Shown here in pieces: positions 7,133 through 12,178 of a stretch of 64,000 bases of DNA. Position 1 is the stretch's first letter; each line of letters opens with the position of its first letter. Under the pieces are notes generated by a model. That model was not told the DNA's origin, searched no databases, and was given only the letters and a program-made list of their open reading frames with translations. The translations under genes and the position numbers were made by a program. This DNA comes from Candidatus Bathyarchaeota archaeon (GTDB taxonomy: Archaea; Thermoproteota; Bathyarchaeia; Bathyarchaeales; Bathycorpusculaceae), in contig CAVRFW010000005.1 of NCBI GenBank assembly GCA_963720565.1, positions 224,001-288,000 on the forward strand. Direction: 5' to 3'.

Positions 7133-8206
7133 TTAATGCTTTTGTTCACGAAGTATTCGCGGAACGTAAGCGCACTGGGGATCAGAACCGAAAATATCAC
7201 CTGTATAAAAGAACGCTGAAGTTCGGCATCCGCCACAAATTTCCCGATACTCGCATACACCACATTTACCTTTAAGCTCACTCTTGTTTCGGATTTTCCC
7301 GAAAAACTCTGAAGACTGCATTTCATTCCAGATACTACTAACTGGTTTGACTTTGACGTTTCCAAGCCTGTAAACATCATTGAAACTACATGGGATAACG
7401 TCACCGTTTTCAGAAATACTCATGAACTTGCCAAAGAAACACCTGCCCAAGAAGAAGTGATTATACCAGTTGTCGAAATCCGGCATTCCTCTTTGCTTCG
7501 CCACACGTGCATAAGATGGATAGTAAACGTTGATGGCGGGTTTTTCCTTGTACACTGACTGTAAATCATAGAGCGCGTTCCATGCCCACTCGTTCTGTTG
7601 AGCTGAAGGAGCAGTTTTAAGACGATATTCATCTTTGCTGTGTGGAATAAAACCGTGATAAATCACCCATCTCGCGGAAAATTTCGCCGCCAAATCAAGC
7701 ACATGGGTGAAATCGCCGGTGTTAACATTCGTGATTGACTCGCTAAAGTTGGCAAAAGTGTAAACGAGACAGTTTAGTAATCCCTCGCGTGAAAGTCTCT
7801 CAATCGCTGAGACCGCGTAACTGTAAGTTCCCTTTCCCCGAATCAAGTCGTTTGTGGTTTCGGCGCCGTCAATACTGATGGAAACCCGAACCTCATTCTT
7901 GACAATATTCTCAAACGCGTCAGCATCTAACAGACGCCCATCAGTAATAATGCTGGTGTTTAAACCGATTTTCCGAGCATATGCTAAAATTTTGAAAAGA
8001 TCTTTTCTTAACAAGGCTTCTCCGCCAGTGACTCCGAAAAAACTCGCTCCAAAATCGTATGCCTGATCAACAATCCGCATGGCTTCTGCTGTATTCACTT
8101 CATCCGGGAAAGCAGGTTTCAACGCTGATGCACAATGTACACAGTTGCTGTCGCAGGCAAAGGTACACCGCCAAGGCATAATATACAAAGGCCCTTTTTC
8201 CTTCAA
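7133..8206 (-). CDS. Radical SAM/SPASM domain protein (AhbD/NirJ/PqqE-like)
   Basis: CDSNCVHC motif, TGGEALLR, C-terminal C...GDVIPC...CGVCEYREICGGCR...DPQC. Confidence 0.9.
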   Translation of the reverse strand: MKEKGPLYIMPWRCTFACDSNCVHCASALKPAFPDEVNTAEAMRIVDQAYDFGASFFGVTGGEALLRKDLFKILAYARKIGLNTSIITDGRLLDADAFENIVKNEVRVSISIDGAETTNDLIRGKGTYSYAVSAIERLSREGLLNCLVYTFANFSESITNVNTGDFTHVLDLAAKFSARWVIYHGFIPHSKDEYRLKTAPSAQQNEWAWNALYDLQSVYKEKPAINVYYPSYARVAKQRGMPDFDNWYNHFFLGRCFFGKFMSISENGDVIPCSFNDVYRLGNVKVKPVSSIWNEMQSSEFFGKIRNKSELKGKCGVCEYREICGGCRTSAFFYTGDIFGSDPQCAYVPRILREQKH

Positions 8207-9123: not shown

Positions 9124-9651
9124 CTAAAGCATTTTTTCTTTGAGAACAGATATGATGCTGCTCGGTTTTATGAGCGACATGCCCGTAATTCCCCCGAGCA
9201 CTTCAATTAGCAGAACCTTGTCGGGATTATCCAAGTCTGCCTTCCTCTCTATACTATTAGCTGCAGCTTCGATGAAGTCTCGCGAATGCAAACTGGTGAA
9301 CCGTTTTTCAATTGTTACTCTGAAGGTTTCGTTCTCGGCTATGTTTGCTGCAAGTTCAATCGCCACCTTTCTTACCTCATCCAAATTTGTGGCCAAAACC
9401 CTTTCAATCGGTATAATCCTGAGCGCATAGCGGAACTCGTAGGGACGATCCTGCAGAATGCCGCGGAATTTCTCTATGACCTCGCATGGGTCTAAGCTTG
9501 TTTTCGCTGCAACCAACCCTCTAATCCCAGTCTTGGCAACAACTGGTGCTGGATCACCAACCAGCTCTTTGAGTAAGTAGCTCAATTCTGAGCACATTTG
9601 TCTCTCATTTCCACGTGAGGTCGAAACTAGCAGGTTAAAATCCCTTATCAA
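9124..9651 (-). CDS. THUMP domain RNA-binding protein (Tan1-like)
   Basis: FNLLVSTSRGNE, LRIIPIE, ETFRVTIEKR, ADLDNPDKVLLIEVLG. Confidence 0.88.
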   Translation of the reverse strand: MIRDFNLLVSTSRGNERQMCSELSYLLKELVGDPAPVVAKTGIRGLVAAKTSLDPCEVIEKFRGILQDRPYEFRYALRIIPIERVLATNLDEVRKVAIELAANIAENETFRVTIEKRFTSLHSRDFIEAAANSIERKADLDNPDKVLLIEVLGGITGMSLIKPSSIISVLKEKML

Positions 9652-9681
9652 ATACTCAGCTCCTATGTCGGTTAGCTCTAA

Positions 9682-9748
9682 GGGTCAGTGTAGGTATATG
9701 GCTTTTCTCACAGCTCTTGGGCTCGAAGCCGTCGCCTCACATCATCCC
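9682..9748 (-). ncRNA. Candidate box C/D guide sRNA
   Basis: GGG-AUGAUG(U) box C ... CUGA box D-CCC terminal stem, 67 nt; degenerate internal D'/C'; both guides resemble the complement of archaeal 16S helix 34. Confidence 0.55.
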
Positions 9749-10129
9749 AGAAGAAGAATCGGTAACGGCTGATTTATCCATTTTGCTGTGCTCGCCTTGG
9801 TTTGCATTCAAAATGAACTACCCCTGTTTATTAATATCTGAAGGGCGAATTTAATTCTTCAACACCGTAAACAATTGATTGTTTTCCAAGAATCTGTTGC
9901 AACTTGACTGACAAAAGAAAAGACTATTCCAAACTGGAAAATACTAAGAGGCTGTCAAAACTGGTTTTAGCAAGCACAAAGCGGGCGAACGGTTGCCGGC
10001 AATGCAACCGAGGTTGTTTCATTACTAAGAACTGCGATTCCGAATTGTGTTTTGAGAAGAAGACAACAGAAAGACATCGAGTTTCCATGACTTTTTCTGC
10101 TGGACTTCGACATTTGACGAATAATAATG

Positions 10130-10181
10130 TTTAAACCATCGCAGACTAAGCTACACTAACACCGAGTTCTATGTGGAGGTG
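10130..10181 (+). promoter_or_regulatory. TATA-like box and Shine-Dalgarno of the acidic micropeptide gene
   Basis: TTTAAA at 10130-10135; GGAGGTG at 10175-10181, 8 nt before ATG 10190. Confidence 0.6.
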
Positions 10182-10189
10182 GAAAAAAA

Positions 10190-10255
10190 ATGGTGTTTGA
10201 AGAAGAAGAATGGGAAGAGAGTGAAGATGAAGAGTGGGAAGAAGAAGAATGGTAG
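10190..10255 (+). CDS. 21-aa acidic Trp-containing micropeptide MVFEEEEWEESEDEEWEEEEW
   Basis: Strong SD, ATG, 21 codons, TAG, downstream T-tract; too short for the ORF track. Confidence 0.7.
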   Translation: MVFEEEEWEESEDEEWEEEEW

Positions 10256-10261
10256 TTGACT

Positions 10262-10293
10262 TTGCGCAATAGCGTTTTTTTGCGTTTTTCTTT
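10262..10293 (+). terminator. Oligo-T archaeal terminator after the micropeptide
   Basis: T7 run at 10275-10281 plus further T runs, preceded by TTGCGCAA. Confidence 0.5.
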
Positions 10294-10390
10294 ATCAAGT
10301 ATTTGCTGCTTGTTTTAGCGTCATTTTTGGGTTGTTTTCAGCGTCCATGTTTATAACCAAGCTATTTTCATTATTGAGGTTGAGTTTGTC

Positions 10391-12178
10391 ATGACCCGTA
10401 TTGCTGTATTGGATGCCGACAGGTGCAAAGTGAAGAAGTGTGACCACCCTTGCGTCAGTTTCTGCCCGATGGTTCGAAGCCGAGTGGAAGCAATACGAGT
10501 TGAAGGAGGCAAAGCTGTTATCTCGGAAATGCTTTGCAGCGGTTGTGGCATCTGTGTCAAAAAATGTCCTTTCAAGGCCATCAGCATCGTGAACTTACCT
10601 GATGAATTGGAAAAGGATTGCAGTCACCGTTTTGGACAGAACGCTTTCAAGCTTTTCAGGTTGCCCACGCCTTCACCAGGAACAGTCTTAGGCTTGCTGG
10701 GGCAGAATGGCATAGGCAAAACTACCACCCTCAAAATTCTTTCAGGCGAATACAAGCCCAACTTGGGAGAACATGACAACCCCCCTCAATGGGACGAGAT
10801 AGTCCAGTACTTCAGAGGCTCATCGCTTCAAGACTATTTCCTCAAAATGAGTCAGAACAACCTCAAAATCGCCCATAAACCCCAATATGTCGACAAAATT
10901 CCAAAAGCAGTTTCAGGCAAAGTGGGTGATCTCCTCGAAAAAGTGGATGAGAGACACCTAGCAGACAAACTCATTCTCGATCTTGAACTCTCAACGGTCC
11001 TAGACCGCACCTTAGACGTGCTTAGCGGAGGAGAGCTACAGCGCGTGGCGGTCGCCGCTGCCCTGTGCCGAGAGGCAGACGTATACCTTTTCGACGAACC
11101 GTCCAGCTACTTAGATGTGAAGCAACGACTACAAGTTGCAAAAGCTATTCGAAGCTTGAAGGATTACCAAAAAACAATAATCGTTGCAGAACACGACCTG
11201 GCCATAATCGATTACATGTCAGATCAAATATGTGTCTTCTACGGAGAACCAGCCGTATACGGGGTCGTTAGTCATGTCCACGGCGTTCGAACAGGCATAA
11301 ACATTTACCTTCAAGGATACATTCCCGACGAAAACATAATGTTCCGAAAAGAACCCATTGTTTTCCACGAAAAGCCTCCAGTTGTAACAGCAAGCACAGG
11401 CGAAACCCTGCTAAAATGGAGCCAGATGGAAAAAACGTTCAAAGGCTTCAAGCTCGCCGTCAAACAAGGAGAGATAAAACGTAGCGAAATAATTGGGATT
11501 TTGGGTCCCAACGGGATTGGAAAAACCACTTTCGTAAAGATACTTGCAGGAATCGAAAAATCCGACGAGGAGCAGCAAATTGGAGAGTTATCTGTAAGTT
11601 ACAAACCCCAATACATAGCAGCAGATTACGACGGTACCGTCCAGGAACTGCTCATGAGCGTTGCCAAAGAGAACTATGCATCAAGCTGGTACAAAACCGA
11701 AATTCTCAATCCGCTGAAGGTCAACACTCTTCTAGACAGAAATGTGATGGAGCTCAGCGGCGGAGAACTGCAAAAAATTGCGATAGCAGCGTGCCTAAGC
11801 CGCAAAGCAGACTTGTTCCTGCTTGATGAACCAAGCGCTTACTTAGATGTTGAGGAAAGACTGAACATGGCGAAAACAATTCGACGCGTGGTTGAAGCAC
11901 ATGGTGTAACCGCCTTCGTAGTTGAACATGACGTTGTAACTCAGGACTTCATCGCTGACAGCCTCATGGTTTTCAGCGGAGAACCAGGAATAAAAGGCGA
12001 AGCGAATCCTCCTGTGAGTCTGAGGAAAGGCATGAACTTTTTCCTTAAGGAAATGAATGTTACTTTCCGAAGAGATACAGCTACCAGACGCCCCAGAGTT
12101 AACAAAGAAAACTCAAAAATGGACATTTTTCAAAAAGAGATTGGCGAATACTACTACACACGCCTCAGCCAAAAATAA
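10391..12178 (+). CDS. rli: Ribosome recycling ATPase ABCE1/RLI
   Basis: N-terminal Fe-S domain (CSGCGICVKKCPF), two ABC cassettes (GQNGIGKTT, GPNGIGKTT, LSGGELQ). Confidence 0.98.
   Translation: MTRIAVLDADRCKVKKCDHPCVSFCPMVRSRVEAIRVEGGKAVISEMLCSGCGICVKKCPFKAISIVNLPDELEKDCSHRFGQNAFKLFRLPTPSPGTVLGLLGQNGIGKTTTLKILSGEYKPNLGEHDNPPQWDEIVQYFRGSSLQDYFLKMSQNNLKIAHKPQYVDKIPKAVSGKVGDLLEKVDERHLADKLILDLELSTVLDRTLDVLSGGELQRVAVAAALCREADVYLFDEPSSYLDVKQRLQVAKAIRSLKDYQKTIIVAEHDLAIIDYMSDQICVFYGEPAVYGVVSHVHGVRTGINIYLQGYIPDENIMFRKEPIVFHEKPPVVTASTGETLLKWSQMEKTFKGFKLAVKQGEIKRSEIIGILGPNGIGKTTFVKILAGIEKSDEEQQIGELSVSYKPQYIAADYDGTVQELLMSVAKENYASSWYKTEILNPLKVNTLLDRNVMELSGGELQKIAIAACLSRKADLFLLDEPSAYLDVEERLNMAKTIRRVVEAHGVTAFVVEHDVVTQDFIADSLMVFSGEPGIKGEANPPVSLRKGMNFFLKEMNVTFRRDTATRRPRVNKENSKMDIFQKEIGEYYYTRLSQK

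Follow-up and report, generated by a model that had tools for sequence, protein, structure and literature searches.

The locus analysed here raises the question of whether a Glu/Trp-rich frame of only 21 codons, lying just upstream of the gene for the ribosome-splitting ATPase ABCE1 (RLI), is a gene at all and, if it is, what its product might do. In the window, by which we mean the whole 64,000-nucleotide stretch of DNA that was analysed, the micropeptide gene runs on the forward strand from an ATG at 10190 to a TAG stop codon at 10253 to 10255. A TATA box, TTTAAA (10130 to 10135, +), and a full Shine-Dalgarno (SD) sequence, GGAGGTG (10175 to 10181, +), precede it, the latter with an 8-nt spacer to the ATG, and a T-tract (10275 to 10293, +), by its sequence a probable archaeal terminator, follows. 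The original prediction had described these elements as a complete tiny unit, and all of them were located; a recount also agreed with its description of the peptide, in which 14 of the 21 residues are acidic (13 E and 1 D) and EEW occurs three times, the last time at the C terminus. ABCE1, the candidate partner of the micropeptide, follows at 10391 to 12178 (+; NCBIfam NF009945, 891.7 bits against a cut-off of 469), with its own TATA box, TTTATAA, at 10350 to 10356 (+). To the left, the wider neighbourhood contains Cgi121 and a gene that we take from its sequence to be THUMP-like (NCBIfam gave no match); to the right, ABCE1 is accompanied by the genes for topo VI B and A and for IF-2.

The SD sequence pairs over 7 bases with the 3' end of the 16S rRNA of the same genome (GGATCACCTCC, C9:262178), and its full form stands before only 11 of 1934 long ORFs there; from this signal, the micropeptide would be expected to be strongly translated. 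When the genome was scanned for ORFs of 10 to 80 amino acids with at least 40% D/E, 44 rows were obtained (nested starts counted), among which, by eye, at least two Trp residues and an SD sequence were present only in the window frame and in a paralogue, C2:76614 (-). The latter (L059 3552-3614, -) is a stand-alone acidic-Trp ORF of 20 amino acids with a GAGGTG SD sequence, situated downstream of a MarC-family gene and far from ABCE1. Its homologue, found in one of five relatives searched, begins with CTG and no longer ends in Trp; C2:76614 is possibly a decaying paralogue. An element resembling a C/D-box sRNA was also observed nearby, upstream of the THUMP-like gene (9685-9745, -; C box ATGATGT, terminal CTGA). 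Its pattern occurs in 82 loci (duplicates counted), the 16S rRNA of the same genome contains a complement to its conserved guide GGCGACGGC (C9:261716), and the element is overlapped by a contig of one RNA run at depth 3. Rfam gave no match to this element and none at E<=5 over 9500-10500.

The coding status of the frame was judged from 184 distinct peptide genes, called by a script from the collected loci and including at least one bacterial false call. The encoded peptides are 18 to 50 amino acids long (median, 24) and consist of 65% E, 15% W and 6% D; they carry 2 to 7 Trp residues, most commonly at a spacing of 5, and from this composition the peptide is predicted to be intrinsically disordered. 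The final residue is Trp in 164 of the 184 peptides and the ending is EEW in 158; Lys and Arg are absent after residue 8 in 178. Among the 46 homologues in the register of the window copy, base differences numbered 42, 4 and 208 at codon positions 1, 2 and 3, respectively, which shows selection acting on the peptide and not on a purine run. The SD sequence, which precedes most homologues, is conserved throughout the phylum together with start, stop and frame. A T-run is present within 70 nt past the stop codon in 32 of 38 homologous loci, a count made in AT-rich DNA with no shuffle control.

These data bear on the alternative that the frame is a purine-rich repeat or an RNA element that arose by slippage. 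The length of the E-runs does differ among homologues, and when four RNA runs were assembled (11 runs matched, with small shares), the contigs, at depths of 2 to 8, covered 9629-9952 (one run) or the 5' part of ABCE1 (three runs) and left the peptide frame uncovered, a result from which we draw no conclusion. However, the codon-position differences, the use of two Glu codons, and the retention of SD sequence, start, stop and frame across the phylum make a noncoding origin scarcely credible. It had been argued beforehand that the use of both Glu codons speaks against simple slippage; this argument is borne out, since both are used in the window copy (11 GAA and 2 GAG) and family-wide (2067 GAA and 1076 GAG), with changes falling mostly in the third position. 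Frame and SD sequence are conserved in relatives, as the original prediction had required, and of the Trp positions the C-terminal one is nearly fixed. On these comparisons, the frame is a real, conserved, unannotated small-protein gene.

How far does this gene extend? A search upstream of ABCE1, as had been proposed, detected an acidic-Trp ORF on the same strand within 1500 nt at 38 of 58 ABCE1 loci (the window's own locus plus 57 from 60 relatives); 4 of the 20 negative loci had less than 600 nt of flanking sequence. A strict whole-genome pattern, consisting of the last seven codons and the stop codon, matched 49 of 61 genomes (own plus relatives), and its reversed control matched 1 of 61. 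In an even sample of the phylum, the corresponding figures were 127 and 5 of 401 genomes, and 34 of 40 matches from outside the nearest families proved to be stand-alone peptides, the rest being mostly the tails of longer proteins. The strict pattern under-counts, as a copy was present beside ABCE1 in 7 of 30 pattern-negative genomes, and a looser pattern yielded further stand-alone copies in families f29, f30, f32, f34, f38, f41, f6, f7 and f11. In total, the families of this one archaeal phylum in which a stand-alone copy was found number at least 39. No copy was detected in f21 (strict pattern, 0 of 56 genomes; ABCE1 flanks, seven; looser pattern, two) or, among the genomes searched, in f31, f45, f65, f5 and f12. 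In family f36, it was present in all 10 genomes examined, five of which were chosen as prior matches and three of which had no prior match, and in nine it lies approximately 45 to 55 nt before ABCE1. Among solved structures, the f36 ABCE1 protein is closest to that of an archaeal ABCE1 (6TMF chain, E 1.6e-250), which we take to be that of Saccharolobus solfataricus.

A scan of 185,579 species returned at least 120 matches, with 80 flanked loci and a stand-alone peptide in 59 once one bacterial false call had been dropped. The sources among the matches listed include Bathyarchaeia, Pyrodictium, Hyperthermus, Ignisphaera, Thermogladius, Thermofilum, Caldarchaeales and Nanopusillaceae, and close homologues come from Bathyarchaeia records; many of the samples are Bathyarchaeia, and the copy counts are not independent. 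Matches were rare outside the phylum: 4 of 71 genomes in the phylum of a Thermoplasmata record, 3 of 71 in that of Haloquadratum and 2 of 71 in that of Nanopusillaceae, and the checked matches in the first two all lay within long ORFs. Two Nanopusillaceae records (L184 2369-2590 and L216 940-1131) carry a longer stand-alone acidic-Trp ORF between the NMD3 and aIF1A genes. In the phylum of G446, 8 of 151 genomes matched, five of them with longer stand-alone acidic-Trp ORFs.

Several side observations were made in these searches. The five ORFs of the G446 phylum (L337-L341; 40 to 80 amino acids) lie directly upstream of an Lhr-type helicase gene and are divergent from a membrane gene, which is followed by a TmcA-like gene. 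Two contigs with a bacterial (L186) and a Nanoarchaeia (L226) title have Bathyarchaeia-like neighbours and may be misbinned. Viral contigs gave 29 matches, among which no clear SD-led stand-alone copy was seen. A broken second copy in G017 (L070) was rejected as an assembly artefact, as it adjoins an N gap and is near-identical to the intact copy. In four loci (L071, L116 2941-3216 (-), L117 and L190, the last a Methanomethylicia record), a LysW-like zinc ribbon is fused to an E/W tail that ends in Trp and not in EDWGE, the usual LysW ending; the ribbon scores below the cut-offs (Pfam, 26.8 bits against 27; NCBIfam, 37.2 against 75).

Library searches, in which low-complexity filters are a limitation, gave no Pfam family for three of three peptides, no NCBIfam match for the window peptide, and no PDB chain at E<=10 for one homologue. 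An exact look-up of 20 peptides in a collection of 15 billion proteins, which depends on the choice of start codon and on the inclusion of such short proteins, returned none of them. A homologue search with one 47-amino-acid member produced 205 candidates, none of which scored. A profile built from the peptide alignment detected the family in none of five genomes, two of which were known positives; therefore, profile searches are blind to this peptide family. No description of the gene was found in the literature searched, and small-ORF tables from transcriptome or ribosome-profiling work on Sulfolobales might list it.

Gene order ties the peptide gene to ABCE1. Among the matches listed, 59 copies were found by the peptide alone, and ABCE1 lies within 2.5 kb of 44 of them (42 in tandem upstream of ABCE1 and 2 divergent); it is absent from that distance in 13, and in 2 the flank is too short. 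In the same 59 copies, the other neighbours were THUMP (19), Cgi121 (14) and topo VI B (10), and ABCE1 occurred without THUMP in 27 copies, whereas THUMP occurred without ABCE1 in 2, one of them at a contig end. ABCE1 is therefore the most constant neighbour of the peptide gene among the genes tested, and topo VI, which the original prediction had suggested as another possible partner, was not supported, since topo VI B lies further out and accompanies only 10 of the 59 copies listed. Because kin are not independent, families were also tallied by hand: in 28 of 39 families, ABCE1 and a copy are no further apart than approximately 1.6 kb, and in 11 the copies are solely unlinked. Linkage to ABCE1 has been kept despite inversion in L138, L139, L140, L146 and L270. 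However, the locus belongs to a translation gene cluster (THUMP, Cgi121, TFS-like and IF-2 genes), and therefore the linkage may reflect hitch-hiking. Furthermore, ABCE1 is found in lineages in which the peptide was not detected (f21, f31, f45, f65 and f5), so the peptide is not an obligatory cofactor.

The TFS-like gene lies between the peptide gene and ABCE1 in several distant families, and near both in L118 (2665-2940), L121, L122, L132 and L137-L141; its product has a single zinc ribbon at the N terminus, is acidic at the C-terminal end and scores under the TFS cut-off. Unlinked copies have diverse, unrelated neighbours, and in two separate lineages genes for AbrB/PhoU-type regulators lie beside them (L126, L127, L133, L134, L169 and L175).

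The flanking genes also speak to the proposal, made in the original prediction, that the peptide is the precursor of a modified product, which we took to mean one whose Trp residues are cross-linked by a radical SAM enzyme. A radical SAM/SPASM gene does lie 2 kb away in the window (7133-8206), but none of 93 peptide loci contains a homologue of it at 40% identity or above, and no maturase, protease, exporter or other modifying enzyme recurs among 99 flanking proteins. The peptide also lacks a division into leader and core. We consider this origin highly improbable, and the proposal was not supported.

Does the gene act through its product, or in cis on ABCE1? The original prediction had not recognised two elements of the locus, an operator-like palindrome and the TATA box of ABCE1 itself, of which the latter bears on this question. 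The palindrome, a 16-bp element with the core CGACA-NN-TGWCG (10106-10121), lies 8 nt upstream of the TATA box of the peptide gene, a distance that is constant except for one locus in which it is 9 nt, and the TATA box thus stands at the same offset from it in relatives. With at most one mismatch, the palindrome was present in 25 of 28 own-family loci and in 1 of 9 loci of other families, and the window copy is the top match to the derived matrix in its own genome (22.5 bits; next, 18.2), a rank to which the site itself contributed as part of the matrix. Its position suggests an activator site, and its presence points to regulated expression of the peptide gene. The second-ranked palindrome (C2:9698) is placed where two genes converge, between their ends; 1.2 kb from it, a short ORF rich in Asp, Glu and Cys, C2:10885 (-), was noted. 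In 31 of 34 own-family loci, among them some in which the peptide gene is not directly upstream, a TATA-like match stands 25 to 45 nt ahead of the start of ABCE1.

A cis-acting leader can be envisioned in which the acidic nascent chain destabilises the ribosome or makes it stall. Whether transcription then passes the U-tract and enters ABCE1 would depend on ribosome occupancy at the stop codon, a feedback on recycling capacity. Salmonella mgtQ offers a precedent, in that acidic small ORFs control downstream genes through ribosome destabilisation (PMC8092293), and in 9 of the 10 f36 genomes the arrangement would suit such a mechanism, with the stop codon approximately 45 to 55 nt before ABCE1, a T-run between the two and an SD sequence before ABCE1. 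As described there, however, mgtQ-type ORFs share with the micropeptide gene a short acidic frame upstream of another gene, but they act in cis via alternative stem-loops (PMC8092293), whereas the micropeptide gene varies in orientation and distance and has no conserved structure: intact copies are divergent from ABCE1 (L138, L139, L140, L146, L195, L201 and L270) or unlinked, tandem gaps range from 11 to 1450 nt among the matches listed and are not short and fixed, and no conserved RNA structure was found either within the 5' leader or downstream of the stop codon (mean z, -0.26 and -0.31; 25 loci, against shuffles). A hairpin that would sequester the SD sequence in the window (z, -2.9) was rejected, since it is not conserved. 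With ABCE1 having its own TATA box in nearly all own-family loci, we regard a cis-acting leader as unlikely. The divergent and unlinked copies and the separate ABCE1 promoter imply that the product probably acts in trans, which is the most likely mode from the arrangement of the sequences. In f36, a secondary cis effect may exist, with both genes on one transcript and the U-tract between them.

For a product that acts in trans, the explanation that we favour, if only tentatively, is that a disordered ligand with acidic-Trp motifs tunes either ABCE1 itself or the step of recycling. The peptide would be an intrinsically disordered polyanion with Trp at about every fifth residue and a free C-terminal EEW, acting as a ligand at the ribosome-recycling step of ABCE1. 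The terminal aromatic residue would dock in a hydrophobic cavity whose rim is basic, for which the NBD1 cavity that binds the tail of the aP1 stalk is a candidate, while the acidic runs would cover basic RNA-binding surfaces; as a result, ABCE1 ATPase activity or residence on the small subunit would be tuned. ABCE1 as the physical partner, the docking site and the sign of the effect are conjecture.

This model draws on two factors known to contact ABCE1. The aP1 stalk tail uses L103, L106 and F107 to bind the NBD1 cavity, and it stimulates the ATPase (PMC6125642). In the window ABCE1, 10 of the 13 cavity residues named in that text are identical at the same numbers, and the genome retains a normal aP1-type tail; therefore, competition for this cavity by a free acidic peptide that ends in an aromatic residue is conceivable. 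The likeness to the aP1 tail, whose documented receptor is ABCE1 NBD1, is that both are acidic and have an aromatic residue at the end; in contrast, aP1 is a ribosome-anchored protein whose tail docks in helical form via L-x-x-L-F (PMC6125642), whereas the micropeptide is free-standing and Trp-repeating. The L-x-x-L-F pattern occurs in 0 of 184 peptides, and as stand-alone ORFs of 18 to 50 amino acids they lack the N-terminal dimer domain of the stalk protein.

The second factor is eIF3j/Hcr1, whose N-terminal acidic domain resembles the peptide in its acidic stretch and key Trp and which accompanies ABCE1 on the small subunit (PMC2824034, PMC7780240). Its N-terminal region occupies a comparable place at ABCE1, the part located there being near K118 of the yeast protein, and may restrain ADP release (PMC7780240). 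However, eIF3j has a helical dimer domain (PMC2824034, PMC7780240), and its acidic-Trp motif binds the RRM of eIF3b and not ABCE1 (PMC2824034). In composition, the micropeptide has what characterises this motif, which is resemblance only and not demonstrated homology; 18 to 50 amino acids leave no room for the helical dimer domain and C-terminal tail of eIF3j, and no Pfam match to them was obtained. The original prediction had also likened the acidic-Trp motifs to the acidic tails of Arp2/3 activators and to the W-acidic motifs of kinesin light-chain ligands, a possible analogy in which the receptors would be Arp2/3 and the KLC TPR domain.

In favour of ABCE1 as the partner we count the linkage (44 of 59 copies among the matches listed; 28 of 39 families), its resistance to inversion, the EEW ending (158 of 184) and the location of the two Nanopusillaceae stand-alone copies between NMD3 and aIF1A genes. 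Against it we count the 11 of 39 families in which the examined copies are away from ABCE1, and the conservation of the aP1 cavity from Pyrococcus to yeast, which hence indicates nothing specific to the micropeptide. Prediction of a complex between a natural 35-amino-acid homologue and its own ABCE1 (L112 pair) scored 0.00, which weighs neither way, and a comparison of ABCE1 cavity-rim residues with peptide presence gave no clean pattern, the script having missed or mis-picked many rows. The suggestion of the original prediction that the peptide is a regulator or ligand, possibly of ABCE1 or the ribosome, was partly upheld: a real conserved small-protein gene with ABCE1 as its most constant neighbour stands, whereas direct action on ABCE1 follows from gene order by inference.

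The unlinked copies lead to a competing explanation, in which the peptide is a multi-client polyanion like Sem1/DSS1. It would serve as a free mimic of RNA or as an assembly chaperone, shielding basic proteins that bind nucleic acids (ribosomal proteins, transcription factors, and tRNA enzymes such as THUMP), and its adjacency to ABCE1 would reflect co-expression only. Sem1/DSS1 is likewise a small, very acidic, aromatic-studded and presumably disordered stand-alone protein. It has approximately 70 to 90 amino acids, a C-terminal helix and a Pfam model; the micropeptide differs in having approximately 24 amino acids and in matching no Pfam family. The free variation in length and Trp number, reminiscent of a repeat polymer, the copies at unrelated sites in 11 families, and the related longer peptide that 5 of 151 genomes of the G446 phylum encode between the genes for an Lhr-type helicase and a TmcA-like protein all agree with a multi-client role, as does the precedent of ObgE-YbiB, where an acidic tail competes with DNA for a basic groove (PMC10123104). 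The near-fixed terminal EEW, however, indicates one defined pocket, and in distant families the peptide gene adjoins ABCE1 more closely than it does the other genes tested. We therefore rate a general polyanion as possible but somewhat less probable than a ligand of the recycling step.

ABCE1 is also an Fe-S protein, and Yae1-Lto1 reportedly serve Rli1. The peptide might accordingly be an Fe-S targeting adaptor for ABCE1, comparable to Lto1, whose C-terminal Trp recruits the CIA targeting complex; the likeness lies in a free C-terminal Trp that follows an acidic residue and in the link to ABCE1/Rli1 (PMC10245660). That tripeptide, however, needs L, I or M at position -3, where the micropeptide has E, and the motif [LIM]-[DES]-[WF]-COO- (PMC10245660) is present in 0 of 184 peptides. 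The window's own genome (89% complete) may also lack the Cia2-type receptor domain, as PF01883 was unmatched there and matched in 13 of 14 control genomes. A targeting role is very unlikely. The probability that remains is assigned to partners outside the explanations discussed here.

Since the micropeptide fails a defining feature of every family considered, we conclude that it represents a new family, which may work like acidic-aromatic docking tails. A broader proposal is that it is an ancient ribosome-recycling regulator of Thermoproteota, a free E/W peptide with its own operator that would compete with the stalk tail for ABCE1 and would be the archaeal forerunner of the acidic-Trp modules found in eukaryotic factors such as eIF3j or Sem1; as a whole, we consider this more doubtful than either a recycling ligand or a general polyanion.

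In conclusion, the product of the gene is probably a helper of translation that has so far escaped recognition. ABCE1 belongs to the core translation factors and has a documented patch for peptides, and no trans-acting small regulator of archaeal ABCE1 was found in the literature searched. That a gene kept in at least 39 families has no library match reveals a blind spot of annotation for frames that are too short and of low complexity; the peptides are nearly devoid of Lys and Arg, and therefore tryptic proteomics would miss them. The copies in Sulfolobales-type genomes (f36) make genetic and synthetic-peptide tests feasible in a model lineage. These results define a phylum-wide, unannotated microprotein gene that is tied to ABCE1 by gene order and whose function is directly testable.
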